Shown here: in pieces, positions 1 through 14,010 of the stretch | How the letters are laid out: each line of letters opens with the position of its first letter | Position numbering within the stretch: the first letter of the stretch is position 1 | Virus record (IMG/VR): IMGVR_UViG_3300028985_000084 | Coordinates: 1-14,391 of that record | Source of the DNA: a virus | Taxonomy: Duplodnaviria > Heunggongvirae > Uroviricota > Caudoviricetes | Strand: one strand, 5' to 3' | DNA: 14,391 bases | Program-made: the position numbers and the translations under genes | Notes under the pieces: model-generated | Told to the model about the DNA's origin: nothing | Databases searched by the model: none | The model's input: the letters and a program-made list of their open reading frames with translations, nothing else

Positions 1-1314
1 TTAACTTACTGATTTTAATAAGCCTCTGGTGTCACTTTGGTGACTATGGGGCATCATTGGGACATAATCTGTCAGCTTCTGATTCAGCATTGCGATCTGT
101 TCTGCATTACTGTCAGTCATCCATGCTCCGTATACATTGAATACCATCTGGGCACTTGCATGGCCCATCTGGCTGGCAATGAAGCTTGGGTTTGCTCCGG
201 CAGATAATGACCAGCACGCATAAGTGTGTCGTGACTGGTATGCTTTCCGGTGCCTGATGCCCGCACGCTTAACGGCTGTTTCCCATGAGTCGCCAATAGA
301 ATCTACCTTGTAGATAAAACCGACCTGTTTGCTTTTTCTAACCACCTGGGGGTTAAATACGAAAGTACATTCATGATTCACTGAGCGCCCATATTCACGT
401 AGTTGAACCTTGATGTGGTGCTGCTTACCCAGTCTTGTCATTTCAGCCTGATTTTTCAGGACACTGATAGCGGGCTGGATAAGATGCACAACCCTGTTTG
501 TACTTGCTTCAGTTTTAGGTAGAGTGAACTCACTGAGTTTCGTATAATTGCGCCTGATAGTAATAGTTCCTGCTTTCAGATCGATATCTTCCCAGGCCAG
601 GGAGACCAGTTCACCGTGACGCATTCCTGTGTACACAGCCAATGACCACAGGTTTTTCGTTTGCTGATGTCGGCAAGCATCTATCAGGCGAATAAATTCG
701 TCACGAGTTAGCGGATCTGGCTCTGCCCTGGCTCTTTTAAGAGGCTTAATTCCCTGGAAGGGATTTGCTTCTAAGTAACCGTGATCTGCAGCAAACTGAA
801 ACATTCCAGCGATTGTCGTCATGTAATAATTTACAGTAACGACGCTCCGTCCTTTTGCTGCTGCTTTGTTTTTCGTTGAATTCTGGTACCCGGTCAGCAA
901 ATCTTTCCTGATATACAGCAATTCCTCTTTAGTTACCGATGACACCAGTCTGCTGCCTCCAATTTTCGGAACCATCGTTCTTGCAACGGATTCATAGCGA
1001 TTGAATGCATTTGCAGAGATCTCCATTCGTTTCAGATCCAGCCACTTTTCTTCAAGTTCCTTCACCGTAATTTCTTTTTTACTTACCCCAAAAGCCTGAA
1101 GGTTAGGGGATTCAGGGAACTGTGCAGCATAATCAAAGCTTCCTGTGCGGATGGCAAAACATACCGATGTCCGCAGTTCCCCGGCGATCTTCCTGTTCTT
1201 GGCAGTGTCAGGGACACCAAGATTTTCCCTGACACGTTTACCTTTAAAATTAAACCAGATGCGTAATGTGCCGCCGTGGTTTTCGACGCCTGTTGGATAT
1301 TTGACTTTATCCAT
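1..1314 (-). CDS. int: Tyrosine-type site-specific integrase (phage integrase with N-terminal arm-type DNA-binding region)
   Basis: 437-aa ORF. ATG at 1314 preceded by GGAGG about 5 nt upstream. C-terminal region carries the tyrosine-recombinase pattern (RHRKAYQSRHTYACW ... GHASAQMVFNVYGAW, i.e. H-x-x-R and a terminal Tyr). Stop codon occupies window bases 1-3. Confidence 0.92.
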   Translation of the reverse strand: MDKVKYPTGVENHGGTLRIWFNFKGKRVRENLGVPDTAKNRKIAGELRTSVCFAIRTGSFDYAAQFPESPNLQAFGVSKKEITVKELEEKWLDLKRMEISANAFNRYESVARTMVPKIGGSRLVSSVTKEELLYIRKDLLTGYQNSTKNKAAAKGRSVVTVNYYMTTIAGMFQFAADHGYLEANPFQGIKPLKRARAEPDPLTRDEFIRLIDACRHQQTKNLWSLAVYTGMRHGELVSLAWEDIDLKAGTITIRRNYTKLSEFTLPKTEASTNRVVHLIQPAISVLKNQAEMTRLGKQHHIKVQLREYGRSVNHECTFVFNPQVVRKSKQVGFIYKVDSIGDSWETAVKRAGIRHRKAYQSRHTYACWSLSAGANPSFIASQMGHASAQMVFNVYGAWMTDSNAEQIAMLNQKLTDYVPMMPHSHQSDTRGLLKSVS

Positions 1315-1369
1315 TGATACCTCCAGACGCCCAAGAGCGATACGAGCTTACATACTTCATGGCATTAAA

Positions 1370-1606
1370 TCACCCAGGTTGTTTGTTTTTCATTGAAGCG
1401 ACCCAGGCATCTATTGCTTTTCTGTTATACATACATTCACTGGAAGGCTTTGGATTACCGTCTGGTGATACGTGAATATACTCTCTTCCAACCATCCAGC
1501 ATTCTTTCCGGGCCCGAAGAATTGTGCCTGGTTTGAGCCCGGTAATTGCGATTAGAACGCTTTCACAAACCCATTCATTGGGAGCCAGTTGAATCACATT
1601 GCCCAT
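1370..1606 (-). CDS. xis: Excisionase (Xis-like small DNA-binding protein)
   Basis: 78-aa ORF directly upstream of int in the same orientation (classic xis-int arrangement). Segment RARKECWMVGREYIHV resembles the lambda Xis core (VRRWVRECRI..DGREYLFH, from memory). GAGG SD upstream of the ATG. Confidence 0.7.
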   Translation of the reverse strand: MGNVIQLAPNEWVCESVLIAITGLKPGTILRARKECWMVGREYIHVSPDGNPKPSSECMYNRKAIDAWVASMKNKQPG

Positions 1607-1614
1607 GCATTACC

Positions 1615-1761
1615 TCACACAACACTCAGCCCACGGCAGTGGCACCACACTTCAAACATTCGTTTCACAATTTCACGACAGTAGAAACCGTCAACATCTC
1701 GTGTCAGGTCATAGCGATTGCCGTAACGCTGGTGGACCCATCGTTCAAATGCTTTATTCAT
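1615..1761 (-). CDS. Hypothetical small protein (48 aa, MNKAFERWVHQRYGNRYDLTRDVDGFYCREIVKRMFEVWCHCRGLSVV)
   Basis: Below the ORF-track size cut-off; found by hand. ATG at ~1761 preceded by AAAGGAAG; open frame to TGA at ~1615; fills the gap between two co-directional genes. Confidence 0.4.
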   Translation of the reverse strand: MNKAFERWVHQRYGNRYDLTRDVDGFYCREIVKRMFEVWCHCRGLSVV

Positions 1762-1764
1762 TCT

Positions 1765-2007
1765 TTACTTCCTTTTCATGGCCCGTAATTTTTTCAGATG
1801 AGCTTCCTGCTCTGTTTCTGCCAGAATTTTGCGGTACTCCTGGTGGTCAATATGTTCGAACAGGCAGTTTAACTCACCAATGCGTACCCGCCCGGATCGT
1901 CCGTCCATCCGTCGAAAGAACACTGAGTGCTCAGTGATGCGAGTAATCACCACGGGGTATCCGGCTCTGTCCGTGTATATCTGACTGCGTTGAATCAAAG
2001 CGAACAT
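1765..2007 (-). CDS. Hypothetical phage protein (80 aa from ATG; ORF track extends to a TTG at 2043)
   Basis: ORF track 1765..2043 begins with TTG and has no SD. The internal ATG (MFALIQRSQ...) at ~2007 has GGGGA 7 nt upstream. Stop lies 3 nt before the next downstream start. Confidence 0.5.
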   Translation of the reverse strand: MFALIQRSQIYTDRAGYPVVITRITEHSVFFRRMDGRSGRVRIGELNCLFEHIDHQEYRKILAETEQEAHLKKLRAMKRK

Positions 2008-2091
2008 GTGGTTATCCCCATCGACAAATCGAGAACACAACAAACGCTGCTGCGAATACCACCCCCAGAGTTACGATTGCATCACGCCAGC

Positions 2092-2925
2092 TCATTGATT
2101 CACCTCCTGCGGCGGTTCTGGCAGCGGCATCCAGTGGGTTACCTCCTTGAGATACAGGTCTTCGCCACCACCGTCATCCCAAGTGGGCTTGCCATCATTA
2201 AACCAGTCGCCATATACGCCGACCTGAGTGTTGGGGATGCTTGGTGGGTAGTTGTTTTTAAAGTCAGCAGCTAACACATAGCATTGTCGCTCTCCCATTT
2301 CTGGCATTCGCTCACTACAGCTTATCCAACTATCCGGAGTTACCGGAAGCGAGAACGGCAGCACATCTCTGTGAACAAGTTTTTGCTGTGACAGGTTATC
2401 CAGAACTTTCTGTACTGCTGCATCACCGAATACACCAAGCGCATCTGCCATAACTCCTACAACCTGATAAGCCTCAGCGCATACCGTGGATAAACCATCC
2501 GGAATTACCGGAGAGTTGCCGGGTTCTTTAATGTGCAAGCGAGGCTCACCATCTTTTGGCTCAGGCCACTGGCGCTCCATGTTGATCTTCAATTTATCTT
2601 CCATAGCAACGTTAATTTCAGCATCGCTGATGCCAGCACGGCGTTGTGCATCCCACAACAGAAACTGCATATCAGCCCACTCGCTAAGATCGTCTGGTTC
2701 GGCTGCGGCTTCCAGTGCCTCTTTTGAGAGGTGTTTCAGTGGACCAATGGGGCCAACGCAGCCAAATGTGGAGTCAGACCATTTGGCATGCTCGTGGCGA
2801 ATCTGTTCGCGTTCCAGTGATGCCAGTGCAATTCGTGCCAGTTCCATTTGTTCGCCACGGGTAAGCCCGTTTTCAAGCGGGTATTTAATGAACAATTCGA
2901 TACGTTCTTTAGTGATAGTGCTCAT
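2092..2925 (-). CDS. Two-domain phage protein: N-terminal MazG-like dATP/dGTP pyrophosphohydrolase-type domain (DUF550-like) fused to C-terminal DUF551-like domain
   Basis: 277-aa ORF; ATG at 2925 with AAGGAG 6 nt upstream. C-terminus (…WISCSERMPE…THWMPLPEPP) matches my recollection of DUF551 proteins; the N-terminal half resembles the prophage DUF550 family. Domain calls are from memory, not a search. Confidence 0.7.
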   Translation of the reverse strand: MSTITKERIELFIKYPLENGLTRGEQMELARIALASLEREQIRHEHAKWSDSTFGCVGPIGPLKHLSKEALEAAAEPDDLSEWADMQFLLWDAQRRAGISDAEINVAMEDKLKINMERQWPEPKDGEPRLHIKEPGNSPVIPDGLSTVCAEAYQVVGVMADALGVFGDAAVQKVLDNLSQQKLVHRDVLPFSLPVTPDSWISCSERMPEMGERQCYVLAADFKNNYPPSIPNTQVGVYGDWFNDGKPTWDDGGGEDLYLKEVTHWMPLPEPPQEVNQ

Positions 2926-2926
2926 A

Positions 2927-3676
2927 TCACTCTCCTTTGATGCGAATGTTTACAACCTGGCAGGCCTCTTTTAGCATCCAGTAAATAGCGTCTTTCCATG
3001 CTCCGGTTTCGGCTGGCGGATTCTCACGTTTTACCTGCTCATAGAAGCGCACAGCTTTAACCAGTCCTTCCGGCACTACTGGCGATGGCTGTTTAGCTTC
3101 TAAATCAGCAATTCTGTCAACCACGGCATCGACAGCATCTGAAAAGCCGAACCAGTTGCTCCACTCCGGCCTGTTACCGGTTGCTGCAAAGTACATATCA
3201 GCTAAAGCAGACTCAGCATGGTCACGCTCGTTAATGAGTTGCTCTTCGCTTTTCTCCAGTTCAGCAATACGCTTACTTCCATCCGAGATAACGCCCTCGT
3301 AATACTCACGCTGCTCGTTGAGTTGTGATTTTGTCTCCTCAAGTTCAGCAACCAGTTTTCGAAGCCCTTCAATCTCACCATTGCGAGCAATGAGGTCGCG
3401 GCACATGCTTTCGTTCTCATCCAGCAGTGCCAGCACGGTAGCCGGGTTAGCCTCTGCTATGAATTCAGCGTTTGCATAAGCCTGAGCATCTGTTTCAATC
3501 AGGCAGTTAACATGACATTCTGCAATCACGCCACCGGGTTCTCCTTTCCATTTTTGGCAAACAAAAACTCCTGTTAAATTGCCGTGCTGGTTAACAGATG
3601 TATGCCCTACGATGTAGCTTCCTTTAGTTGCTTTCTCTGCCGCCTCACGCAGTACCTGATAGTCAATCTTGCTCAC
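2927..3676 (-). CDS. Ead/Ea22-like prophage protein (coiled-coil rich)
   Basis: ORF track 2927..3709. Likely start is the GTG at ~3676 (VSKIDYQVL…), preceded by AAGGAGG and overlapping the upstream stop in a GTGA coupling arrangement. Central region (ANPATVLALLDENES…, heptad-like E/L/K) is typical of Ead/Ea22-like proteins. Confidence 0.7.
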   Translation of the reverse strand: MSKIDYQVLREAAEKATKGSYIVGHTSVNQHGNLTGVFVCQKWKGEPGGVIAECHVNCLIETDAQAYANAEFIAEANPATVLALLDENESMCRDLIARNGEIEGLRKLVAELEETKSQLNEQREYYEGVISDGSKRIAELEKSEEQLINERDHAESALADMYFAATGNRPEWSNWFGFSDAVDAVVDRIADLEAKQPSPVVPEGLVKAVRFYEQVKRENPPAETGAWKDAIYWMLKEACQVVNIRIKGE

Positions 3677-4023
3677 TGGTTGCCTCCTTTGCGAATCTGT
3701 TCCGCCCATTCTTCTAGGGATTTCTCCGCATATTCACCGGACAGGCCATCAATCGGGTGTGGTTCATTAGCCAACTCTTCTTTCGCTGACAGAATCATGC
3801 GTGTAACGTCGAAAACTTCACGTAAAGACTTATTGATAAATCCGTGATTGAAAGCCGCAGCAAGACGGCTTGCGGTATAGTTAATACCCTCGTTGCGAGC
3901 CTCAGCACGTACTTCATCGAATTTACGCACCAGATACTCAGCATTTGTTTCATTCACTTTCAGATCTCGTGGTACACATTTCCCGCGAAGAAACCCTTCC
4001 ATTTCGAAAACATTCATGCGCAT
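3673..4023 (-). CDS. Hypothetical early-left-operon protein (YfdS-like by position and size)
   Basis: 116-aa ORF; ATG at 4023 with GGAG 8 nt upstream; a second ATG at 4017 overlaps the upstream stop (ATGA). Confidence 0.6.
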   Translation of the reverse strand: MRMNVFEMEGFLRGKCVPRDLKVNETNAEYLVRKFDEVRAEARNEGINYTASRLAAAFNHGFINKSLREVFDVTRMILSAKEELANEPHPIDGLSGEYAEKSLEEWAEQIRKGGNQ

Positions 4024-4550
4024 TTGCGTAACTCCGATAACTCGTTAAAACGTTCCATAAACATCCCGTAGGCATGGCCTGGCGACAGTGGAATCACTTT
4101 GAACATCTCTGTTGCCGGGATACCTTCCAGTACAGGCCAGAAAGAGCTATCATCAAGCCCGAGATCGCGGCGTTCGGTTGCCAGCATGATGAGATCGGCA
4201 TATTTCACGGGCGTGCTCATAACCGGGGGTAACCCGTATTTCTCACGGATTACGGCGTCTATTTTTTCTTCCATCCGTTTATAGTCAGGAAGAAGGCGTT
4301 TCAGTGGAGCGGGAATATCCTGGCAATACGCTTCTGTTGCATCATGCATTAACGCTTCAAAAGCAAATTCCTGCGGCACCAGCTGGCTGCAAAGCACCGC
4401 ATGTTGGGCGACACTGTAGAAGTGAGAAAGATGACCGGCAAAGCGGCAGATATTTGAAAGGGAAACCGCGATATCGTTAATCACGATGTCGTCTTTATTT
4501 ATCCTGTCATAATAAAAATGCTTCCCGGAAAAAGTTTTAATAAATGACAT
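4014..4550 (-). CDS. yfdR: HD-domain phosphohydrolase, 5'-deoxynucleotidase YfdR-like
   Basis: ORF track 4014..4577. Preferred start is the ATG at 4550 (MSFIKTFSGKHFYY…) with GGAG 7 nt upstream, giving 178 aa. HD signature H…HD…D present (…HAVLCSQLV…EALMHDATEAY…). Follows a 274-aa yfdQ-like gene as in CPS-53. Confidence 0.8.
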   Translation of the reverse strand: MSFIKTFSGKHFYYDRINKDDIVINDIAVSLSNICRFAGHLSHFYSVAQHAVLCSQLVPQEFAFEALMHDATEAYCQDIPAPLKRLLPDYKRMEEKIDAVIREKYGLPPVMSTPVKYADLIMLATERRDLGLDDSSFWPVLEGIPATEMFKVIPLSPGHAYGMFMERFNELSELRKCA

Positions 4551-4643
4551 TTTGTTCTCCACGTATATGCGCTGCACCGCGCTGAGTTTGGGTAAAAGGA
4601 AGCCCTCACCATCCGGTGATTATTGAGTTAATTACGTTTCCAT

Positions 4644-4665
4644 AAATGCCCCCGCAGGGGCATTT
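4644..4665 (-). terminator. Intergenic GC hairpin (AAATGCCCC-loop-GGGGCATTT) between yfdQ-like and yfdR-like genes; possible attenuator or processing site
   Basis: Near-perfect 9-bp inverted repeat with 4-nt loop read from the sequence; only a weak U-tract follows on the minus strand. Confidence 0.3.
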
Positions 4666-4677
4666 GCAGTAATGAAA

Positions 4678-5502
4678 TCAGGCGGTGAAAGTACCAATAA
4701 AGGTTTCTACTTTGCTGTCTTTGAATTTCTCAACAAGCAGATCACGAAATTCGTTAGCCATATCTTCCTGCACCGCTTCCAGCTGAATAATGCGCATAAC
4801 CAGTACAGGACGATCGCCAGTGATAATGCTGAGGCGTAATTTAAACGGACGTTCTTTCAGACCTTCAAACGGAACGCATTTAAATTCAAATGTCACTGGC
4901 ATAATGTCTTTGGTCTTCGCTTCGACAGATTCCATCAGGGAGCGTTTGCCGCTGAAGTCATTGTCTTCAAAATCAGCGGTCTGGTTCGCTTCAATTGTGA
5001 TTTTACGGATCGCCGCAACCGCTTTGGTTGCCTGAATGGCGTCACCATTAGCATCAAAGCCCACAAGGTAGTCGGCCCAGTCTTCAATCCATTCTGCCAG
5101 TGACTTTTGGGAGTTACGCTCGCCATTAACAGACAACAGAGCAGAGAACGGTGCTGTCTTTTTCAGTTTGAGAGTGGCGGTGTTATCTGCGTGACCTGGT
5201 TCATCAATAGTACCCAGGTTAAGCACACTGACGGCACGCATATTATCGGCATCGATAAAGCAGCGGGTGCCTTCATCTGCAAGATCTTTAGAATAACGGG
5301 TAAAGTCATCGATGCTGGCAGTGGAAAGCGCACCACGGAAACGGAAGCGATTTAAATTAAATTTTTCCAGATCATGAATGCGGAAATTCTCAGGCAATGC
5401 CACAGCATCGGCACCAATCTTACTAATAATTTCATTAACACCCTGAGCAGAAATAAGGGCATGGATTTGATTAATTGCGGTTGCGTCTAAGTTCTGAGAC
5501 AT
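4678..5502 (-). CDS. yfdQ: YfdQ-like protein (DUF2303 family), function unknown
   Basis: 274-aa ORF; ATG at 5502 with GAGGA 6 nt upstream. Size and position between 120-aa and 178-aa HD genes match the CPS-53 yfdP-yfdQ-yfdR order. Confidence 0.75.
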
Positions 5503-5567
5503 AATAAGTCCTCACTATATAAAGATATTCAGTGATGAGATAAATAATCGGTTAATTAAGAACGATA

Positions 5568-5930
5568 TTAATGACCTGCTGCGCGGAGTTTTCCGTCAGG
5601 TTCACCGGCAAGAGTCAGTAATTGTCCCTGGTCTTCCTGCAGAATAGTCAGGCGACCACCTCGATTGACATACATCGGCGTTTCGGTGGTGTCTTCTTCG
5701 GAGATTTTCCCGCGGTTAGTCGGGCGAACATATGAGAGTTTGTGTTTGATTTTCACACGGTTCTCATCAAACGGTTCGATGTCCAGATTGACCGAGACTT
5801 TACCTTTGTTTTTCGTGTTCATCACACCGGAAGCGACTTCACTGAGAACTGCGCCGAGTTTGGTTTCAAATACGCCGCCGTCCAGTTCTACGATAAATAC
5901 CTGCACATCAGTACTGCGTACGCTAGCCAT
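5568..5930 (-). CDS. yfdP: YfdP-like small protein (120 aa), first gene of the leftward early cluster
   Basis: ORF track gives a 182-aa frame (5568..6116). The internal ATG at ~5930 (MASVRSTDVQ…) has GAGGAG 8 nt upstream and yields 120 aa; the 62-codon upstream extension has no SD. Confidence 0.6.
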   Translation of the reverse strand: MASVRSTDVQVFIVELDGGVFETKLGAVLSEVASGVMNTKNKGKVSVNLDIEPFDENRVKIKHKLSYVRPTNRGKISEEDTTETPMYVNRGGRLTILQEDQGQLLTLAGEPDGKLRAAGH

Positions 5931-5978
5931 TTTGCTGCTCCTCATCATACCGACCCTGCAAGGTCGGTTGGTTTCTCC

Positions 5979-6067
5979 ACAAAACAGAGAAGAACACCTG
6001 CGGTGACAGCCGCCCGGATGGATTGGGTTATGAGCCCGTCGTCCGGTGATGCTCTTCTCTGTTTTGT
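5979..6067. repeat. Perfect 15-bp inverted repeat (ACAAAACAGAGAAGA … TCTTCTCTGTTTTGT) separated by ~59 bp, in the leader upstream of the leftward cluster
   Basis: Read directly from the sequence; arms are exact reverse complements. A 15-bp perfect IR is very unlikely by chance in 14 kb. Confidence 0.8.
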
Positions 6068-6335
6068 AAAAAGAGCGGTACCAGCCGGAAGCAAGTGTAC
6101 AAACTGGTACCGCCAAAGCAGTGGCTGTTGTGGTGACCGGTGCTGATCTCCGGCTTGCGGTTATTTCAGACTCTCACGGGCGTTTAATTGCCCCGCCGAA
6201 CAGCTCTTTTCCGCAATAGCTGCAATGTCTTTCGCGCATCAGCCTGCGCATTCACCACAACGCTAAGGATTCTCTCTGGTTGAAAATACTTAGCTGTTAT
6301 GTGCCTGCTTTTAGCCACATCAGGCGAGGTGGACC

Positions 6336-6399
6336 TGGTTATTCCCCAACAACAAGGATTTGGTTATTATGTAACCCTCCCCAACAACGATAAGGATTT
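6336..6399 (+). repeat. Tandemly duplicated module TGGTTATT … CCCCAACAAC … AAGGATTT (two copies, second with short insertions)
   Basis: Direct repeat read from the sequence. Each copy ends in AAGGA followed by an ATG: copy 1 gives ATG-TAA (start-stop), copy 2 gives the ATG of mini-ORF P1. Confidence 0.7.
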
Positions 6400-6401
6400 A
6401 T

Positions 6402-6491
6402 ATGGATCTATGTGTAGATAAGTATGAGGAGAGGCATGTGCCGTTAAGACAAAAGCCTCCAGTTCCTCCAAAACCACCCAAGGAAAACTGA
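6402..6491 (+). CDS. Proline-rich mini-ORF P1 (29 aa, MDLCVDKYEERHVPLRQKPPVPPKPPKEN); possible leader peptide/uORF
   Basis: ATG with AAGGA 5 nt upstream; TGA stop 7 nt before the ATG of the downstream membrane-protein gene; paralogous to two further mini-ORFs downstream. Confidence 0.35.
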   Translation: MDLCVDKYEERHVPLRQKPPVPPKPPKEN

Positions 6492-6498
6492 GACTAAT

Positions 6499-6993
6499 AT
6501 GACCAGAGACGATTATAAATTTTATGTTCACTACTCTTATGTATTGGAGAAGATGAATTACACGTTGTTAACTCGCATTGATAAATTAATAACGTTGATG
6601 TTAATCGTTCTCGGTTTTTCAGTTTTCGCCCCGTACAGTAATTTATTTATTTTCGGTTTGTTTGTTGCCGTACTTTCGGTTCTTCAGTTGGTCTATCAGT
6701 TTGGCCAAGAGGCTGGAATGTCTAAAGAGCAAGCGAGGCATTACAAAAGACTGCTGATTGAGTCTGATACCCTTCCTGAAGATCAGTTGCAAGCTAGGTA
6801 TTTAAAAATCCAAGATACTGATAGTAATCCATGGAAATCACTTGAACGAGCGGCTTTCATTCGGGCCTGTATTTTTGCTGGTGTTCCAACTAAGTACGAT
6901 TTAACAACCAAAGAAAAATTTATAGCTTGGTGTGCGGGAGATCTACCTCTAGAGAATGAACTAACGGATATTAATGATGACCAACAAGCATAA
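6499..6993 (+). CDS. Small inner-membrane protein with two N-terminal TM helices and a ~95-aa soluble C-terminal domain; candidate superinfection-exclusion (SieB-like) or abortive-infection protein
   Basis: 164-aa ORF in an AT-rich segment. Hydrophobic stretches LITLMLIVLGFSVFAPY and LFIFGLFVAVLSVLQLVYQF. On the opposite strand to the early-left genes and convergent with the repressor, the position SieB-type genes occupy in lambdoid prophages. Functional call is positional inference only. Confidence 0.65.
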   Translation: MTRDDYKFYVHYSYVLEKMNYTLLTRIDKLITLMLIVLGFSVFAPYSNLFIFGLFVAVLSVLQLVYQFGQEAGMSKEQARHYKRLLIESDTLPEDQLQARYLKIQDTDSNPWKSLERAAFIRACIFAGVPTKYDLTTKEKFIAWCAGDLPLENELTDINDDQQA

Positions 6994-7048
6994 TCCAGTT
7001 CACGGACATGTACCTCCGAAGCCGAAACCACCGAAACCGAAGAAATGA
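6974..7048 (+). CDS. Proline-rich mini-ORF P3 (24 aa, MMTNKHNPVHGHVPPKPKPPKPKK), overlapping the 3' end of the membrane-protein gene
   Basis: Open frame from ATG ATG to TGA; no clear SD. Peptide shares the H-V-P-P-K-P-K-P-P motif with P1 and P2. Confidence 0.25.
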   Translation: MMTNKHNPVHGHVPPKPKPPKPKK

Positions 7049-7067
7049 GACATAATAGGATTGGATA

Positions 7068-7136
7068 ATGAGTCGACCAATAGAGCCTTTTCATATTCCA
7101 CCTCGTCCCAGGCCACCAGATCCAGGCCCAAAGTGA
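7068..7136 (+). CDS. Proline-rich mini-ORF P2 (22 aa, MSRPIEPFHIPPRPRPPDPGPK)
   Basis: ATG with AGGA ~7 nt upstream; followed ~25 nt later by an intrinsic terminator; paralogous to P1 and P3. Confidence 0.35.
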   Translation: MSRPIEPFHIPPRPRPPDPGPK

Positions 7137-7159
7137 GGGTTACTGATTTTTAAAGAGCG

Positions 7160-7184
7160 AAGCGTCCGGTAGGGCGCTTTTTTG
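7160..7184 (+). terminator. Rho-independent terminator closing the plus-strand insert operon
   Basis: 8-bp stem AAGCGTCC / GGGCGCTT (one G-U pair) with GGTA loop, followed by a 6-7 nt T-tract. Confidence 0.65.
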
Positions 7185-7298
7185 GTACTAACGAATCATC
7201 CTGGACTTCATATGCCCCAGGCGGCTACTTCGTGGGCGTCCTGCCTGTTCGTTATCTTTGATATAAAATCTAACTTAACTTAGTTTTAATGGCAAGAG

Positions 7299-7330
7299 AA
7301 AACACCAAACTTTTCTTAGTTCGGTGTTTT
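7299..7330 (-). terminator. Hairpin downstream of the repressor gene, candidate (bidirectional) terminator
   Basis: Inverted repeat AAAACACCAAAC … GTTCGGTGTTTT with 8-nt loop; on the minus strand the stem is followed by UUUUCUCUU; lies ~20-50 nt past the cI-type stop. Confidence 0.4.
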
Positions 7331-7349
7331 GGTTAGAGAAAAGGGGGGG

Positions 7350-7976
7350 CTAGAGTTCGTATTGAACTCCTTTGACTACACCAATGATGAGGCAATTACC
7401 ATTGATCGGGATGTTGGGGTACCGGGGATTTAATGGCACTAAAAACTTTTGAGGGCCATCGATAACTAATTTTTTTACTGTGGCTTCGTTTGTTCCATCA
7501 AGTCTAGCGATGACTATTTTTCCATGCCGGGGTTCTGCATCAGGATCTACAATCACTGTTGCGCCTTCTGGTATTGTTGGGAGGCCGTTAGGGTTAGTCA
7601 TGGAGTCGCCTTTAACCTCCAATGCAAATGAGTTATCACCAATCTTTAATGATGTATCTACCCACTTGTCTACTTCACTAAACACTTCTGCTGTCCTGCA
7701 CTCAGTAAACTGCCCAGCCTGAACCCACGAGATTACAGGAACTCTGCGCATGTTTGTGACGAGTTTGCCTTCAAACTCCGCACCATAAAGAATGTAATCT
7801 ATTGACGTATTGAAGAACTTCGCTAATTTTGAAAGTGCTTCCCCACCAGGGACATTGATGTCTTTCTCCCAGTACCCCACAGCAACGTCACTTACTCCAC
7901 AAAATTTACCCAATTCTTTCTGGGACGTTCTGGTAACTCTTCTCAGAGCTTTTATACGCTGACCAACCGTTTCCAT
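7350..7976 (-). CDS. cI: CI-type prophage repressor (N-terminal HTH, C-terminal S24 LexA-like autopeptidase domain)
   Basis: 208-aa ORF. N-terminal HTH (QKELGKFCGVSDVAVGYWE). C-terminal S24 signature including GDSM (catalytic Ser) and a downstream Lys. Divergent from a cro-like gene. Confidence 0.9.
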   Translation of the reverse strand: METVGQRIKALRRVTRTSQKELGKFCGVSDVAVGYWEKDINVPGGEALSKLAKFFNTSIDYILYGAEFEGKLVTNMRRVPVISWVQAGQFTECRTAEVFSEVDKWVDTSLKIGDNSFALEVKGDSMTNPNGLPTIPEGATVIVDPDAEPRHGKIVIARLDGTNEATVKKLVIDGPQKFLVPLNPRYPNIPINGNCLIIGVVKGVQYEL

Positions 7977-8073
7977 AGGAGCACCATTTCTTTAATTACT
8001 AAGTAATCTTAGTTTTTATTGACCTAAGATAGATTGATAATTAACATCTAATAAAACTTAGTTTGGAGGGCAT
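7977..8073. promoter_or_regulatory. Divergent immunity-region promoter/operator segment between cI-type repressor and cro (pRM/pR-like)
   Basis: AT-rich 97-bp spacer between divergent genes. Candidate rightward promoter TTGACC-17 nt-TAACAT ending ~20 nt before the cro ATG (SD GGAGG). Four CTAAG/CTTAG half-site-like motifs, including the palindromic ACTAAGTAATCTTAGT. Confidence 0.6.
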
Positions 8074-8274
8074 ATGACGACTGACGATATCGAAAGCTAC
8101 TTCGGCAGCATTGAGAAAGTTGCTGCTTTTTTCGGCATAACAACTGAAGCCGTTTATCAGTGGCGAAACCGTCCTGGCCAGTTAATTCCAAAAGGACGTG
8201 CAGCAGAGGCTGCATATAGAACTTGCGGACGGTTGCCATTTAAACCTGAGCTTTATGAAAAATCTAATGGATAA
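8074..8274 (+). CDS. cro: Cro-like HTH DNA-binding regulator
   Basis: 66-aa ORF; ATG at 8074 with GGAGG upstream; HTH segment IEKVAAFFGITTEAVYQW; divergent from the repressor. Confidence 0.8.
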   Translation: MTTDDIESYFGSIEKVAAFFGITTEAVYQWRNRPGQLIPKGRAAEAAYRTCGRLPFKPELYEKSNG

Positions 8275-8896
8275 ATCGATTTACAGAAACCACAGATATG
8301 AGGGCTTAAACGTGGGTAAAGAACCTGAATGGAAAGTTGATAAGCAACCAGCATGGCTGGTGGCAGCAATACGAAGAACGATTGCTGATTTACCTCATGG
8401 CTATGAGGAAGCAGCAGAAATTCTTGGTTTGTATAAATCTGATGATATCACCCCAGCAAAAGATCAATTGCATAACAGACTGCGTAGCGGTGGGGATCAA
8501 ATTTTTCCACTTGAGTGGGCCATGGTTTTACAGGATGCCAGTGGTACCAGGCATGTAACGGATGCAATAGCCCGTCGTAGTAATGGGGTGTTTGTGCCGC
8601 TGGTGGTCATTGATGACATTGACAATGGTGACATTAATCAGCGGCTGATGGAGTCAATAGAATGGATTGGCAAGCATTCCCAGTACTTACGCAAGGCAAC
8701 TGCTGATGGAGTTATTGACCAGGCTGAGCGTGAGCAAATCGAAGAGAACAGCTACCAAGTAATGGCGAAGTGGCAGGAGCATTTAACACTGTTATTTCGT
8801 GTTTTTTGTGCGCCGGAAAAGAGTAACGCCCGCGAGTGTGCAGCTCCGGGCGTCGTGGCGTCGATTGCTTCTGGTTGTGGAGAAACTAACGCATGA
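8255..8896 (+). CDS. YdaT/CII-like early regulatory protein (start uncertain)
   Basis: ORF track frame opens at a GTG (8198) inside cro. More likely starts are the ATGs at ~8255 or ~8267 (MKNLMDKS…). Immediately follows cro as ydaT/cII-type genes do; no strong SD, so the start is uncertain. Confidence 0.55.
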
Positions 8897-9231
8897 ACAG
8901 TTTAACAACACACTACCGTCGCTCGCAACTGATTGCGCTTCCTGTACCGGGTGGAAAAGCGAAGGTGGAGTATTGCTATGCAGTGAATGTACCAGGTGAC
9001 AGGGAAATTGTAACCCACAGCTTTGCAGAGTGGGCTGTGGGTGATTTCAACCGGCAGAAGGAGACAGTCCTTTGCGACAAGTTAACCGCTGGTTCAAAGA
9101 TCACCACGGAGTGCCCGTCAGAGTCATTCGTTGGGAGCCGGAAACACAACGGGTTATCTACCTCCGTGAAGGCTATGAACATGAATGCTTCAGCCCACTT
9201 GAGCATTTCAGGCAAAAGTTCAGGGAGATAA
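8893..9231 (+). CDS. Hypothetical protein, frame A (N-terminal ~55 aa protein-like, remainder low quality); possibly frameshifted or truncated
   Basis: ATG overlaps the upstream stop (ATGA) with GGAG ~10 nt upstream, but the C-terminal two-thirds overlap a better-looking gene in another frame. Confidence 0.3.
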
Positions 9232-9263
9232 GGGACGATCATGAGCAAACCAGTAATGATTGA
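9072..9263 (+). CDS. Hypothetical small phage protein (63 aa, DUF4222-like by recollection), TTG start
   Basis: TTG at 9072 preceded by AAGGAG with 9-nt spacer. Product (…[39 protein letters not shown]…) looks like a genuine globular small protein. Confidence 0.45.
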
Positions 9264-10095
9264 TTCTGCCATTCCGGGACGTTACACTGTTCAGGCACCT
9301 TATAAAGCGGGTGCCGGGATTGGCGTCCTGAAATTGTCAACGGCGATGTATGACGCGCCAGCGTCTTTTTTATCGTCCGCATTTGCTCACATCCAGATTA
9401 TGGTGGGCTGGGCGGGGGCACCGAAAGGTGCGCCGGTCTCCGTTGACGCCGGTTACGCCAACCCCGTCCAGTTCACCACCAGTGAAATTGGCGTTTCCGG
9501 TGGTGGAAGTTTTTCACTGTCAACGGAGGCTGCCATCATGGCTACGATCCCAGCCCTCACTCAACCTGAAATCACCATTGACAACGGCCAGGCCGTTACC
9601 ACTTCTTTGGCTGTTGCCAACTTCTTCTCCAAGCGTCACGACGATGTGCTGAAAAAGATCCGCACTCTGGATTGTTCCCCTGAGTTTTGTGCCCGCAATT
9701 TTGCGGAGACATCGATTTCGGTAAATCAACCGAACGGTGGTACACGCAAGCTCCTTTGCTATCAAATCACACGAGACGGTTTTGCGTTTCTTGCTATGGG
9801 TTTCACGGGTAAACGTGCTGCCCGGTTCAAAGAGGCATACATCAATGCCTTTAACCAGATGGAACAGGCGCTGATCGGAAAGGTTGATACTTCATGTGTC
9901 GCGCACAATGCCCACGTTGTTTACCTCTACATGGCTGAAATTCACCGCGTTTGGTTAGAACAACTTTATCCGATGCTGGTTTCAGTTCAGTCTCCGCTGG
10001 CTTCATCGCTCTACGACTACATCAACGATGGTGTATTCGTTGCCGGGCTGGTGGACTCGGAACTGAACGAAAAGCATAAGGAGGTGCGTAAGTGA
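9241..10095 (+). CDS. Rha-family phage regulatory protein with an unusual ~100-aa N-terminal extension
   Basis: 284-aa ORF. Residues ~105-200 (ITIDNGQAVTTSLAVANFFSKRHDDVLKKIRTL…) fit the Rha N-terminal domain. ATG at 9241 has AAGGGA upstream; an internal ATG at ~9538 has a strong GGAGG 8 nt upstream and would give a canonical ~186-aa Rha protein. Confidence 0.75.
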   Translation: MSKPVMIDSAIPGRYTVQAPYKAGAGIGVLKLSTAMYDAPASFLSSAFAHIQIMVGWAGAPKGAPVSVDAGYANPVQFTTSEIGVSGGGSFSLSTEAAIMATIPALTQPEITIDNGQAVTTSLAVANFFSKRHDDVLKKIRTLDCSPEFCARNFAETSISVNQPNGGTRKLLCYQITRDGFAFLAMGFTGKRAARFKEAYINAFNQMEQALIGKVDTSCVAHNAHVVYLYMAEIHRVWLEQLYPMLVSVQSPLASSLYDYINDGVFVAGLVDSELNEKHKEVRK

Positions 10096-11033
10096 GCACC
10101 AAATTAACCGGCTATGTATGGGATGGTTGCGCAGCGTCAGGCATGAAATTATCCAGTGTGGCAATTATGGCCCGTCTGGCTGATTTCAGTAATGACGAGG
10201 GTGTGTGCTGGCCATCAATTGAAACCATTGCCCGCCAGATTGGCGCGGGGATGAGTACCGTCAGAACGGCTATCGCACGGCTGGAAGCAGAAGGCTGGTT
10301 AACGCGTAAGGCGCGTCGCCAGGGTAACCGCAATGCGTCGAATGTTTATCAGCTTAACGTTGCGAAGCTTCAGGCTGCGGCATTTTCTCAACTGTCAGAT
10401 TCTGACCCGTCAAAATCTGACGCATCAAAATCTGACCCGTCAAAATTTGATGCGTCGAAATCTGGCAAAAAAGCGTGTTTTCACCCGTCAGAATCTGGCG
10501 GGGATCCGTCAGTAAAATCAAAACATGATCCGTCAGATAAAAAACCTTCTCGTCCGGACGCTTTGCAACCGGACACGCAGACGGCTGAACAGGATTTTTT
10601 AACTCGCCATCCTGATGCGGTTGTATTCAGCCCTAAAAAGCGCCAGTGGGGAACGCAGGATGATTTGACCTGCGCACAGTGGCTCTGGAAAAAAATCATC
10701 GCCCTGTACGAGCAGGCCGCCGAATGTGACGGCGAGGTGGTTCGTCCCAAAGAACCGAACTGGACAGCATGGGCAAACGAAATTCGCCTGATGTGTGTGC
10801 AGGATGGTCGTACTCACAAACAAATCTGCGAGATGTACAGCCGCGTCAGCCGTGATCCGTTCTGGTGCCGTAACGTGCTCAGCCCGTCGAAGTTGCGGGA
10901 AAAATGGGATGAGCTTTCCCTGCGCTTATCGCCGTCCGTCAGCACGCACACAGAAAAACGTGAAGACCCGTACTTCAAAGCCAGTTACGACAACGTGGAC
11001 TACAGCCAGATCCCGGCAGGATTCAGGGGGTGA
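10092..11033 (+). CDS. Replication initiator / replisome organiser (lambda O-like; N-terminal HTH, origin iterons inside the gene)
   Basis: 313-aa ORF; GTG start overlapping the upstream stop (GTGA) with AAGGAGG 8 nt upstream. N-terminal HTH (…CWPSIETIARQIGAGMSTVRTAIARLEAEGWL…). Internal 15-bp tandem repeats encode SKSDx pentapeptide repeats. Confidence 0.8.
   Translation: MSTKLTGYVWDGCAASGMKLSSVAIMARLADFSNDEGVCWPSIETIARQIGAGMSTVRTAIARLEAEGWLTRKARRQGNRNASNVYQLNVAKLQAAAFSQLSDSDPSKSDASKSDPSKFDASKSGKKACFHPSESGGDPSVKSKHDPSDKKPSRPDALQPDTQTAEQDFLTRHPDAVVFSPKKRQWGTQDDLTCAQWLWKKIIALYEQAAECDGEVVRPKEPNWTAWANEIRLMCVQDGRTHKQICEMYSRVSRDPFWCRNVLSPSKLREKWDELSLRLSPSVSTHTEKREDPYFKASYDNVDYSQIPAGFRG
10395..10510 (+). 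repeat. Origin-like iteron array: five contiguous 15-bp direct repeats (consensus TCAAAATCTGACNCR, ~10395-10469) plus two degenerate copies and an A-rich tract
   Basis: Read directly: TCAGATTCTGACCCG / TCAAAATCTGACGCA / TCAAAATCTGACCCG / TCAAAATTTGATGCG / TCGAAATCTGGCAAA. In-frame within the initiator gene, as lambda ori lies inside gene O. Confidence 0.7.
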
Positions 11034-11035
11034 TC

Positions 11036-11128
11036 ATGAGTCTGTTAAATGACGTTCAGAAATTCATTGAAGCCCATCCGGGCTGTACTTCCGGAGACAT
11101 TGCGGATGCTTTTTACGTGGGGGCTTAA
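11036..11128 (+). CDS. Hypothetical small protein (30 aa, MSLLNDVQKFIEAHPGCTSGDIADAFYVGA)
   Basis: Below ORF-track cut-off. ATG 2 nt after the initiator stop with AGGGGG 5 nt upstream; its TAA overlaps the next gene's ATG (TAATG). Confidence 0.35.
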   Translation: MSLLNDVQKFIEAHPGCTSGDIADAFYVGA

Positions 11129-11781
11129 TGAGTAATAAATATTGCCAGGCGCTGGTAGAACTGCGGAACAAACCAGCCCATGAACTGAAGGAAGTGGGCG
11201 ATCAGTGGCGCACGCCGGACAACATTTTCTGGGGAATTAACACCTTGTTTGGTCCGTTTGTTCTGGATCTGTTCACTGACGGTGATAACGCCAAATGTGC
11301 CGCGTATTACACGGCGGAAGACAACGCGCTGGCGCATGACTGGTCAGAACGTCTTGCGGAGCTTAAAGGTGCTGCCTTTGGTAATCCCCCATACAGCCGC
11401 GCCAGTCAGCATGAGGGGCAATACATCACCGGCATGCGTTACATCATGAAACATGCCAGTGCCATGCGTGATAAGGGCGGGCGCTATGTTTTCCTGATCA
11501 AAGCTGCCACCAGCGAAGTGTGGTGGCCGGAAGATGCGGACCATATTGCTTTTATTCGCGGGCGTATTGGTTTTGAACTGCCTGCCTGGTTTATACCGAA
11601 GGACGAGAAGCAGGTGCCGACAGGCGCTTTCTTCGCTGGTGCTATTGCTGTTTTCGACAAGACCTGGAAGGGACCGGCAATCAGCTACATCGGGCGCGAT
11701 GAACTTGAGGCATGTGGTGAGGCATTTCTGGCGCAGGTTCGCCAGCAGGCGGAAAAACTGGTCAGGGAGATGGTGGCATGA
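11128..11781 (+). CDS. Phage DNA N6-adenine methyltransferase (Dam-like)
   Basis: 217-aa ORF with the (D/N)PPY catalytic motif (GNPPYS) and an N-terminal W-R-T-P-type motif typical of phage Dam proteins. Confidence 0.85.
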   Translation: MSNKYCQALVELRNKPAHELKEVGDQWRTPDNIFWGINTLFGPFVLDLFTDGDNAKCAAYYTAEDNALAHDWSERLAELKGAAFGNPPYSRASQHEGQYITGMRYIMKHASAMRDKGGRYVFLIKAATSEVWWPEDADHIAFIRGRIGFELPAWFIPKDEKQVPTGAFFAGAIAVFDKTWKGPAISYIGRDELEACGEAFLAQVRQQAEKLVREMVA

Positions 11782-12167
11782 AGCTAATACTGCCTTTTCC
11801 GCCCAGCGTGAACACGTACTGGCGACACCCCAACAAAGGGGCATTTGCTGGTAAGAGCCTGATAAGCGAGGCGGGGCGAAAATTTCAGAGCGCGGCGTGT
11901 GCCGCCATCATTGAGCAGTTACGTCGTCTGCCGAAACCAACGTCGGCACCTGCTTCAGTGGAGATCGTGTTGTTTCCTCCGGATAACCGGATCCGCGATC
12001 TGGACAACTATAACAAGGCGCTGTTTGATGCCCTGACCCACGCGGGTGTGTGGGAAGACGACAGACAGGTGAAAAGAATGCTGGTGGAGTGGGGACCGGT
12101 TATCCCGAAAGGGAAGGTCGAGATCACTATCAGTAAGTATGAGAAACCGGCGGGTGCAGCCGCCTGA
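11778..12167 (+). CDS. rusA: RusA-family Holliday-junction resolvase
   Basis: 129-aa ORF; ATG overlaps the upstream stop (ATGA). Conserved RusA pattern (…LPFPPSVNTYW… DLDNYNKALFDALTHAGVWEDD…), comparable to E. coli RusA DLDN…FDALT as I recall it. Confidence 0.85.
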   Translation: MKLILPFPPSVNTYWRHPNKGAFAGKSLISEAGRKFQSAACAAIIEQLRRLPKPTSAPASVEIVLFPPDNRIRDLDNYNKALFDALTHAGVWEDDRQVKRMLVEWGPVIPKGKVEITISKYEKPAGAAA

Positions 12168-12186
12168 TTAAGAGGAGAAACGAAGT

Positions 12187-12996
12187 ATGAATAATCTGAT
12201 GGTCATTGATGGTATTGAAGTTCGTCGTGATGCTTATGGGCGTTACAGCCTGAACGATCTGCACAGGGCAGCCGGGGGAGAACAAAAAAACCGCCCGAAA
12301 TACTGGCTCTCCAATAAGCAAACCTGTGAATTGATTGAACAACTTTTCACCGAGGGGGGAATTCCGCCTCTGGAAAAGAATCAACCAGTTAGCGTTATCA
12401 ATGGCGGAAATAACCAGGGGACGTATGTCTGCAAAGAACTGGTGTATGCCTATGCAATGTGGATCAGTCCGTCATTCCATCTGAAGGTGATCCGTACTTT
12501 CGATACGGTAACCAGCGCACCGGAAAAATTATCCGGGCAGGCTGCTGACAAGATGCAGGCTGGTGTGATTCTGCTGGACTTTATGCGTCGGGAGTTAAAC
12601 CTGTCTAACTCATCTGTGCTTGGTGCCTGTCAGAAACTCCAGGAGGCTGTTGGCTTACCGAATCTGGCACCGCGCTATGCCATTGATGCTCCTGCCGATG
12701 CACCCGATGGCTCAAGTCGCCCCACGCTGTCGCTAAGTGCACTGCTGAAACAGTATGGTATCCGCCTGACGGCTAATCAGGCATATCACCAGATGGTGAA
12801 GCTGGGGATCGTCGAGCAGCGCGAACGATACAGCCGTACCGCGATTAACAACATCAAAAAATTCTGGTCGCTGACGGCGAAAGGCTGCATGTTCGGCAAG
12901 AACATCACCAGTCCTGCAAATCCGCGCGAGACGCAGCCGCACTTCTTCGAATCCCGATTCCCTGAGCTGTTAAAGCTGCTCGATACCGTTCATTGA
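12187..12996 (+). CDS. KilA-N domain protein (antirepressor-like, nin-region)
   Basis: 269-aa ORF; AGAGGAG 9 nt upstream of the ATG. N-terminal ~100 aa (…DGIEVRRDAYGRYSLNDLHRAAGG…YWLSNKQT…GTYVCKELVYAYAMWISPSFHLKVIRTF) fits the KilA-N fold pattern. Confidence 0.75.
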   Translation: MNNLMVIDGIEVRRDAYGRYSLNDLHRAAGGEQKNRPKYWLSNKQTCELIEQLFTEGGIPPLEKNQPVSVINGGNNQGTYVCKELVYAYAMWISPSFHLKVIRTFDTVTSAPEKLSGQAADKMQAGVILLDFMRRELNLSNSSVLGACQKLQEAVGLPNLAPRYAIDAPADAPDGSSRPTLSLSALLKQYGIRLTANQAYHQMVKLGIVEQRERYSRTAINNIKKFWSLTAKGCMFGKNITSPANPRETQPHFFESRFPELLKLLDTVH

Positions 12997-12997
12997 G

Positions 12998-13993: not shown

Positions 13994-14010
13994 TTTTGTG
14001 GAGAAAGTTG

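Follow-up and report, generated by a model that had tools for sequence, protein, structure and literature searches.

Polyproline micro-proteins encoded on both sides of a two-helix membrane protein gene in a lambdoid prophage: a conserved module and its possible role

Among the described leader or arrest peptides (TnaC, SpeFL, MgtL/MgtP, toiL), TnaC, SpeFL, MgtL and MgtP regulate while their nascent chain sits in the ribosomal exit tunnel, and to our knowledge a two-transmembrane (TM) effector with polyproline micro-protein partners is not a described architecture. Antimicrobial peptides rich in proline (PrAMPs) are set apart by composition (Pro content 25% or higher, net charge +1 or higher; PMC11678341) and by an antimicrobial action through binding of the 70S ribosome and/or DnaK, and the type II peptide apidaecin, which traps release factor, ends in PRPPHPRL, with P11, R12, R17 and L18 almost immutable and a C-terminal carboxylate that abuts the P-site tRNA. 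Type I peptides (oncocin/Bac7-like) block initiation; their N-terminal segment extends to the peptidyl-transferase centre, and the core Tyr6-Leu7-Pro-Arg-Pro has a fixed register relative to the N-terminus. CreT from P. aeruginosa CRISPR-Cas loci is a 15-nt open reading frame (ORF) that ends Pro-Pro-stop and whose toxicity is independent of the peptide sequence (bioRxiv 10.64898/2026.06.02.729485). Here we analyse a 14,391-nt stretch of Caudoviricetes DNA (the window; IMG/VR record IMGVR_UViG_3300028985_000084, positions 1 to 14,391) in which three micro-ORFs, P1, P3 and P2, flank the gene for a two-TM-helix membrane protein. Judged by comparison with homologous loci, these micro-ORFs are genuine protein-coding genes for mostly cationic polyproline peptides of 22-29 aa, and we put forward tentatively, as one possibility among several, that the micro-proteins are peptide partners of a toxic two-helix membrane effector and are made by translational coupling.

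The operon reads micro-ORF, two-helix membrane protein, micro-ORF, micro-ORF, terminator, and occupies the slot that separates the early-left genes from cI in a lambdoid prophage of E. coli. P1, the upstream micro-ORF or 'U' class (6402..6491, + strand), encodes 29 aa (MDLCVDKYEERHVPLRQKPPVPPKPPKEN); P3, the first downstream micro-ORF (6974..7048, + strand), encodes 24 aa (MMTNKHNPVHGHVPPKPKPPKPKK); and P2, the second (7068..7136, + strand), encodes 22 aa (MSRPIEPFHIPPRPRPPDPGPK). They occupy three different frames relative to each other and to the 164-aa ORF (6499-6993), and have in common the core H-[VI]-P-x-[KR]-x-[KR]-P-P-x-P; when the six-frame translation of the 14.4-kb window was searched for H.P....P with at least five Pro in 12 residues, the only three matches were P1, P3 and P2. 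Pro content and net charge are 24% and +1 for P1, 41% and +2 for P2, and 29% and +6 for P3. A preliminary description, made from the sequence alone, had placed and translated the three ORFs just as we find them and had recognised their core as well as Shine-Dalgarno (SD) sequences for P1 and P2; P1 has AAGGA 6 nt 5' of the ATG, P2 has AGGA/TGGA 5' of the start, and P3 has a weak GGA as its only SD. The basic C-terminus that it ascribed to all three is present in P3 (..KPKK) and P2 (..DPGPK) but not in P1, which ends ...KPPKEN. The 7-nt gap that it gave between the P1 stop (6489-6491) and the membrane-gene ATG at 6499 also stands; at this coupling junction (6480..6501, + strand) the membrane gene has its ribosome-binding region within the last part of P1. 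At the other end of the gene, the start of P3 overlaps the last 20 nt in another frame. The intrinsic terminator said to follow P2 is there too (7159..7183, + strand), predicted by RNA folding as a 9-bp stem with a GGUA loop and U6 (centroid -14.2 kcal/mol), 22 nt 3' of the P2 stop, and closes the operon. Gene callers do not annotate any of the micro-ORFs, and out of 10 peptides queried against a collection of 15 billion proteins, eight were absent while the remaining two were present without a name.

The protein between them (6499..6993, + strand) is a 164-aa, two-TM-helix member of phrog_6315, a family of unknown function (PHROGs E = 9e-64). Its AlphaFold2 (AF2) model, with a predicted local distance difference test score (pLDDT) of 77, has a long helical hairpin (H3-43/H47-88) and four short helices, the predicted order being a helix at the N-terminus, then a TM hairpin, then a cytoplasmic part made of helices. 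The protein is without a match in Pfam (E up to 10) and in NCBIfam, and PADLOC-DB 2.0 (E up to 10) returned nothing for it, for a 67%-identity-class homologue or for the three peptides. No Pfam SLATT match was seen among 52 family members (the window protein plus 51 remote relatives; E up to 0.01), nor any precomputed SLATT domain in large protein searches with the membrane protein or a remote profile; UniRef labels two family members SLATT. Foldseek against the PDB gave a best E of 1.1, and fold searches recovered generic helical hairpins only. Close homologues (n=72) come from Escherichia, Enterobacter, Salmonella, Cronobacter, Klebsiella, Citrobacter, Leclercia, Pectobacterium, Brenneria and Sodalis, and a profile search extended the family to 222 clusters (50% identity) of stand-alone relatives of 150-180 aa. 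Towards identifying the protein, another large protein search, made with the remote profile, contributed nothing.

Scanning IMG/VR with the membrane protein yielded 50 loci, a scan of genome contigs gave no confirmed locus, and the comparative set consisted of 47 distinct Enterobacterales loci. The conservation of mini-ORFs next to the membrane protein, which the preliminary description had proposed as a test, is evident in this set: a Pro-rich ATG ORF with an SD ends 6-20 nt (mode 8) before the membrane gene in 44 of the 47 distinct loci, and 1-3 more motif ORFs lie downstream, so that some loci have four in all. In L061 the upstream-ORF stop is embedded in a GAGGTG SD. One of the three exceptions, L004, has a frameshifted membrane gene and still holds its mini-ORF. 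In this E. coli S1-KEN-03-A locus (L004 2501-2976), the frameshift falls near the start of the membrane gene and all three mini-ORFs are intact. The first downstream ORF begins no more than about 30 nt from the membrane-gene stop, on either side of it, and is set 9-15 nt apart from the membrane gene in many loci; from their positions, the upstream and first downstream ORFs would allow translational coupling throughout the operon.

What is conserved extends beyond proline. The upstream class has the consensus ..DYEE[RK]H[MVL]P..[QK][RK]P..PPKP followed by an acidic tail, and besides Pro an invariant His, an aliphatic residue (Val/Ile/Met) and Lys/Arg are kept, together with YEE[RK] before the His in the upstream class and an N-terminal MS[KR]PIEPF in one downstream class. 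The conserved peptide core is His-(Val/Ile/Met)-Pro-Pro-(Lys/Arg)-Pro-(Lys/Arg)-Pro-Pro. L005, for instance, one of the 67%-identity E. coli loci, has MYVDSNEKFHVPVNQRPAPIPEPKPEM upstream, and MTNRIPIIPNHVPPKPRPPSPKS... and MNAFIYTWKEDHIPLKPRPSPPEPKPKSR downstream, the first of these downstream peptides being, like MSKPVPIIPNHVPPKPRPPAPKG from L018, a homologue of P3. P2 has near-identical counterparts encoded by diverged DNA in Klebsiella-type loci, and MSRPIEPFHVPPRPRPPQPGK occurs in L044 and L048 with synonymous differences only. Six-frame translation of the 47 loci gave 113 motif occurrences inside the modules vs 0 in 241 kb of flanks, and a degenerate DNA pattern for HVPPKP[R]PP hit 8 of 2.9 million IMG/VR contigs, all 8 of which were already known via the membrane protein. 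These comparisons show the pairing of the peptides with this membrane-protein family to be old and specific.

Our data further indicate that selection acts on the peptides. In motif-anchored codon columns, entropy is 0.8-0.9 bits at position 1, 0.7-0.8 at position 2 and 1.4-1.65 at position 3; identical-peptide pairs differ by up to 6 synonymous changes; and all four Pro codons are in use (CCA 37%, CCT 33%, CCG 21%, CCC 9%). Pooled nonsynonymous to synonymous ratios (pN/pS) anchored on the motif were 0.41-0.42 in frame vs 1.2-2.2 in the two other frames and, since this first set had been picked by peptide pattern, the test was rerun on an upstream ORF defined by synteny alone, which gave 0.24-0.46 with pS saturated at 0.78-0.94 (membrane gene, 0.07-0.37); being pooled pairwise values from short, saturated alignments of related sequences, all of these figures give a direction rather than precise estimates. 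Frames, starts and SDs are thus kept while the DNA has diverged to synonymous saturation, which upholds the view of the preliminary description that it is the peptide, and not a DNA repeat, that is selected. Broken frames alongside a retained DNA repeat would speak for a DNA- or RNA-level element; in the homologous loci examined we found the opposite, and the DNA-repeat reading is rejected because the DNA diverges while the peptide is kept.

That the segments are not genes at all, and instead reflect chance, a C-rich DNA/RNA repeat (Rho-loading, anti-SD), frameshift debris or programmed frameshifting onto the membrane protein, might appeal to their C-rich and G-poor, Rho-friendly make-up (some contain CCUCC), to the overlap of P3 with the membrane-gene end in another frame and the existence of a fused version, as well as to their absence from gene-caller annotation and near absence from protein collections (two of ten peptides, both unnamed). 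Such explanations have to contend with frames, ATGs and SDs that survive synonymous saturation, with low DNA identity vs high peptide identity in the motif, and with flanks free of the motif. Nor do other readings of the nucleic acid help: there was no Rfam match at E up to 1 over 5800-7500, and RNA folding was no better than in shuffles, both across the P1 junction (6385-6520; z = -0.59) and in the P3-P2-terminator region (z = +0.24). These two results and a conserved leader that is without covariation led us to reject an RNA-level element, and a Gly-rich reading of the reverse strand was dropped as well, its ORFs being inconsistent between copies. Programmed frameshifting onto P3 is rejected as a general explanation because many loci have the 9-15-nt gap after the membrane gene. 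To our minds, chance and non-coding explanations are effectively excluded by these comparative data.

The association reaches beyond the close homologues. Nine remote family members, 22-33% identical to the window protein and from genomes of 35-61% GC, were examined, and seven of them (L058, L064, L065, L067, L068, L071, L073) have a Pro-rich upstream mini-ORF that ends 1-17 nt before the ATG; examples are MNAPKPDAHKPINERPVPPPKPQRKS, MEQYSLENYVPKKPPPPKPNPPKK, MIRQNNEERGHILRKPTPPPRPPKK and ...DHAPIYRTPPPPPPPRSD, and the L064 peptide has seven consecutive Pro. Such distant partners in genomes of 35-55% GC for the most part have a Pro-rich mini-ORF ahead of them. A downstream copy is present too in three of those seven, e.g. 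MTEPEPSFEHYVPKRPPPKPKK. The other two (L069 1-1683; L072 11-971) are without a Pro-rich upstream ORF; one of this pair follows an NTP_transf_8 nucleotidyltransferase gene and the other is separated from an adjoining RNase T2 gene by 1 nt. Remote homologues that adjoin a nucleotidyltransferase or RNase T2 gene in place of micro-ORFs suggest, on this sequence evidence, a membrane protein that is a shared effector used with different partners. In L058 (2143-2358) the downstream gene is a 71-aa protein with two CxxC pairs (zinc-ribbon-like), which replaces Pro-rich mini-ORFs.

The motif itself is arranged with some freedom. Copy number per locus is flexible (1-4), the distance from motif to C-terminus varies between 12 and 28 residues, and the N-terminal part before the core is 8 to 20 or more residues long. 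Two motifs share one peptide in L003, L027 and L044, a tandem two-motif peptide of 54 aa was seen on 18 contigs, and in the Pectobacterium protein P0013 the membrane protein carries the motif as an in-frame C-terminal fusion, an arrangement stable in at least three assemblies. A different kind of extension is found in L017 (622-1191; protein P0002), where a lost stop carries the membrane ORF on to 186-189 aa through P3 DNA in a non-proline frame (...ESGSRTCSSEAETTETKE...), so that P3 is hidden by a gene-caller artefact. E. coli AH02 (L006 3080-3302) is a recombinant with P1 and membrane gene of the window type and both downstream mini-ORFs of the 67%-identity type; its junction lies inside P3, between ..HGHVG and HVPPKPRPPSPKS.., and a BRCT-domain gene replaces the usual cI flank.

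How might these parts work together? In the reading we tentatively favour, the peptides, as short linear ligands of the polyproline-II type, would bind the membrane protein and either restrain it or regulate it in some other way, and the membrane protein itself would be a latent membrane-damaging effector like the two-helix effectors of defence systems. The gene grammar would be toxin-antitoxin-like, with a small partner gene ahead of the toxin and coupled to it, and with additional copies, and coupling would yield the peptides in a fixed relation to the membrane protein. Because each peptide needs several Pro-Pro bonds, its supply would hang on elongation factor P (EF-P) and ongoing translation; once an infecting phage stops host gene expression, restraint would lapse and the membrane protein would halt the infection, by exclusion or abortive infection, whereas the prophage's own early-left transcription, running antisense through the operon, may silence it on induction. 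Provisional as it is, this reading covers the geometry of coupling, the conservation of residues other than Pro, the multivalent motifs, the occurrence of fusions and the position in the genome. The conserved geometry, the natural C-terminal fusion and the tandem fusion argue for a physical link with the membrane protein; a flexible copy number of 1-4 is as expected of a multivalent ligand; the conserved His, aliphatic and basic residues and YEE[RK], together with the use of all four Pro codons, point to a function at the peptide level and not to stalling alone; and the slot beside cI, the low GC, the NTP/RNase T2 neighbours and the UniRef SLATT labels are consistent with an effector or defence context.

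Several points weigh against this reading. Binding is something we infer, and in the AF2 model of P0013, the natural fusion, the tail is not placed (pLDDT 46-59), which makes the model uninformative about docking; moreover, the fusion keeps an internal ATG from which the tail could still be translated by itself. That the membrane protein, which is without a match to Pfam SLATT, PADLOC or a solved fold, is toxic is our assumption. Pro-rich peptides are usually protease-resistant, which weakens a version with a labile antitoxin. The core motif can still be discerned next to membrane partners that are down to about 25% identity, and such persistence would be easier to explain by a universal target such as the ribosome than by a fast-evolving partner. 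Finally, no sigma-70 consensus promoter was identified 5' of the module on the + strand, in the window or in L005, so that expression in the lysogen is assumed.

If the ribosome is the target, it may be reached in cis or in trans. The preliminary description had offered both versions, as leader peptides and as PrAMP-like effectors, and each has fared unevenly: the upstream-ORF position agrees with the former, but an attenuator structure is absent and the downstream paralogues and conserved non-Pro residues are left unexplained; the latter can claim a modest resemblance of the downstream class to the Bombus apidaecin core (z ~2.3-2.6), against which stand the missing Arg-Leu end and the fusions. 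In cis, ribosomes would slow or arrest on the H-x-P-P-x-P-x-P-P nascent chain, and a ribosome paused or terminating at the end of P1 would cover the ribosome-binding site of the membrane gene and gate initiation there, the released peptides being functionless and synthesis of the membrane protein depending on EF-P, proline supply or translation status. We consider this doubtful, for all that speaks in its favour. There is a precedent in that consecutive Pro codons in a mini-ORF can arrest translation (bioRxiv 10.64898/2026.06.02.729485). The upstream stop is separated from the membrane ATG by 6-20 nt in 44/47 loci and by 1-17 nt in remote homologues; no copy is without a Pro-Pro, PPP is frequent, and in L064 seven Pro follow one another; ORFs of 20-35 codons would keep the whole nascent chain within the exit tunnel; fusions would be tolerated; and a motif kept despite strong divergence of its partner is what constraint imposed by the ribosome would look like. 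On the other hand, 1-3 copies lie 3' of the regulated gene, ahead of the terminator, with no obvious pause target there, folding (z = -0.59 and +0.24) reveals no alternative RNA structure to remodel, the motif-to-stop distance varies from 12 to 28 residues, and the conserved acidic and basic residues and MS[KR]PIEPF exceed what Pro-Pro stalling needs. Many of the X-PP-X contexts (VPPK, RPPA), besides, are not known to be among the strongest EF-P-dependent ones.

In trans, released peptides would bind the ribosomal exit tunnel or DnaK and throttle translation by phage or cell, with the membrane protein as their partner, e.g. as a sink, an immunity factor or a second effector. P2 and P3 have a PrAMP-like composition and P1 is borderline; the downstream core PFHIPPRPRPPDP aligns with PVYIPP-PRPPHP of Bombus apidaecin at z = 2.3-2.6 over composition-matched shuffles, 10-12 of 500 of which reach the score; His is tolerated at Tyr6 of Onc112; variable copy number would suit dosage or arms-race logic; and apidaecin variants are active when E. 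coli itself expresses them from a mini-gene with an SD (PMC11347161). What tells against such inhibitors, which we regard as quite unlikely, is that apidaecin's nearly immutable C-terminal R17-L18 is absent, the ends here being PK, KK, GK or acidic, that the upstream class lacks order-specific similarity and includes a member with a net charge of -4, that a producer would poison its own ribosomes and that the role of the membrane protein is left unexplained. Tandem and membrane-protein fusions, and the variable N- and C-terminal extensions, are also hard to square with a PrAMP because its action as a plug depends on its termini. It is likewise unlikely, if a more far-reaching thought, that the peptides are the first phage- or bacterium-encoded counterparts of PrAMPs, exit-tunnel or DnaK ligands made in the lysogen with a membrane partner, and hence a new translation-targeting class of exclusion or abortive infection spread over many bacterial groups; just as improbable is the detail that such ligands would either be released in trans or act on the very ribosome making them. 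A proline-codon RNA toxin like CreT, in which SD, Pro-codon mini-ORF and stabilising hairpin trap ribosomes or tRNA-Pro, finds an echo in P2, where SD, Pro-rich mini-ORF and a terminator hairpin 22 nt 3' repeat the three-part layout of CreT. We hold it to be highly improbable, as none of the common endings (PK, KK, GK, SD, ED...) of the 65 unique micro-ORFs is Pro-Pro-stop, non-proline residues are conserved, the use of all four Pro codons gives no indication of rare-codon sequestration, and there is no CRISPR or CreA-like repressor context.

As for the setting, the window is a lambdoid prophage of the CPS-53/e14/SfV type, with integrase, excisionase, Ead/Ea22, YfdR, YfdQ and YfdP-like genes running leftward and a cI-like S24/HTH repressor gene at 7350-7976 (- strand), after which Cro and CII-like genes run rightward. 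The flanks of the slot that holds the module are present in ~1,900 complete E. coli genomes and in phages such as SfV, SfII, SfIV and mEp460 with other cargo between them, and the terminator hairpin also ends the slot in loci with other cargo; window-type cargo occurs in 51 E. coli genomes at 97.6% identity or more, and a version ~67% identical in 54 more. GC content is 40.7% in the module vs 48.6% in the window. An AT-rich module with its own terminator, in a variable slot beside cI whose flanks hold different cargo elsewhere, is by these features typical horizontally acquired cargo, and the slot acts as a hot spot in which the cargo is exchangeable and the flanks are fixed. Other occupants of the slot are a 144-aa ORF with a convergent 73-aa ORF (L002 3001-4010) and, in SfV (L057 2500-3250), orf33 on the opposite strand. 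Elsewhere in the prophage, E. coli AR_0013 (L001 1196-4427) has a tandem duplication of a dATP/dGTP pyrophosphohydrolase plus Ead/Ea22 pair, with pseudogene fragments, of which the window has a single copy (2092-3709).

Upstream of P1 lies a conserved non-coding leader (6296..6395, + strand; ~100 nt) with two CCCCAACAAC..AAGGAT repeats, the second of which supplies the P1 SD. It is nearly invariant across E. coli, Klebsiella-type and Pectobacterium loci, exceeds the adjacent coding DNA in conservation, and also precedes an unrelated cargo gene in phage vB_EcoM-689R6. Covariation was looked for in the leader and none was found, which places its conservation at the sequence level; its ACAAGGAU units resemble the CsrA binding consensus. 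A minimal start-stop ORF (ATG TAA) at 6369-6374, 10 nt after the leader's first AAGGA, may be due to chance or may be a regulatory start-stop element. On the far side of the module, a leftward promoter-like site, TTGCCA-17-TAGATT (7295 to 7267, - strand), overlaps the operator-like CTAACTTAACTTAG (7270-7283), which resembles the palindrome ACTAAGTAATCTTAGT of the right operator (OR) at 7998-8013; OR and the left leader have no common k-mer of 9 nt or more. To us, the 7267-7295 site looks like a left operator and promoter (OL/PL), in which case early-left transcription would run antisense through the whole module and could silence it on induction. The right slot flank (7186-7253), which has an imperfect inverted repeat (CAGGCGG...CCTGCCTG), is kept in ~1,900 E. 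coli genomes as well as in phages of Yersinia, Klebsiella and Shigella, and may be the 5' part of the early-left transcript.

Proteins of 20-35 aa escape gene callers, and the peptides described here, under clear purifying selection as they are, were nearly missing from a collection of 15 billion proteins. Loci annotated with a 'hypothetical membrane protein' may be multi-gene systems. The peptides mark a widespread, unnamed two-component module, with 222 membrane-partner clusters at 50% identity, at a place where prophages keep defence cargo. Should the peptides regulate a membrane effector, this would be a new toxin-antitoxin or abortive-infection logic in which the supply of a polyproline micro-protein reports on translation; should they bind the ribosome, bacteria or phages would have reached the PrAMP solution of insects and mammals and would offer natural, genetically tractable tunnel-binding peptides. 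Either way, the module would make a clean test bed for EF-P-dependent gene control. In the literature we found neither a link between polyproline micro-ORFs and a prophage membrane protein nor PrAMP-like peptides encoded by a phage or bacterium, in keeping with the earlier impression that no phage system of this kind had been described, and our comparisons point to a so far undescribed prophage cargo that combines small proteins with a putative membrane effector in a toxin-antitoxin-like grammar.

Set beside the known systems with which we began, the micro-ORF peptides agree with animal PrAMPs (apidaecin, oncocin, pyrrhocoricin, Bac7) in size (15-35 aa), Pro content (at least 25%) and net positive charge, and in a core where an aromatic residue or His, an aliphatic residue and Pro precede (Pro/Arg)-Pro-Arg-Pro-Pro, as in P2 PFHIPPRPRPPDP vs Bombus apidaecin PVYIPPPRPPHP. 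The apidaecin C-terminal Arg-Leu is missing, whereas its PRPP core is present; the oncocin N-terminal register is apparently not kept, and H-[VI]-P-P-R-P-R-P-P resembles the type I sequence Y-L-P-R-P-R-P-P with one extra Pro; the best alignment match is apidaecin or oncocin at z = 1-2.6 only. PrAMPs, unlike the peptides made inside the bacterium from a prophage operon, are secreted by an animal and imported; here, moreover, Arg frequently gives way to Lys, both ends of the upstream class are acidic and all peptides are linked to a two-helix membrane protein. With leader and arrest peptides the module has in common a 20-35-codon ORF directly 5' of the regulated gene, residues conserved close to the C-terminus and consecutive Pro codons by which transit would come to depend on EF-P, but it has no attenuator or SD-sequestering structure, its inter-ORF gap is too short for a Rho site, paralogous copies also lie 3' of the gene, and the motif can be fused to the regulated protein. 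The likeness to CreT consists in an SD, consecutive Pro codons in a mini-ORF, a hairpin downstream of it and a tie to anti-phage conflict, the differences in ORFs of 22-35 codons with conserved non-Pro residues and without Pro-Pro-stop.

The systems that our favoured reading calls to mind are of another kind. Like type II toxin-antitoxin pairs, the module has a small gene first, coupled to a larger, presumably harmful one, on a mobile element and with its own terminator; in contrast to them, the 'antitoxin' would be an unstructured polyproline peptide of 22-35 aa in 2-4 copies on both sides of the gene, there is no DNA-binding domain, and toxicity is assumed. The membrane protein is predicted to resemble SLATT-type two-TM effectors in its small size and in the series of N-terminal helix, TM hairpin and helical cytoplasmic portion, and differs from them by its lack of a Pfam SLATT match and of a nucleotide-signalling partner in the window-protein clade. 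In position, finally, the module matches the immunity cargo of the lambda rexAB type, which likewise sits beside the repressor gene, where prophages carry exclusion and defence cargo.

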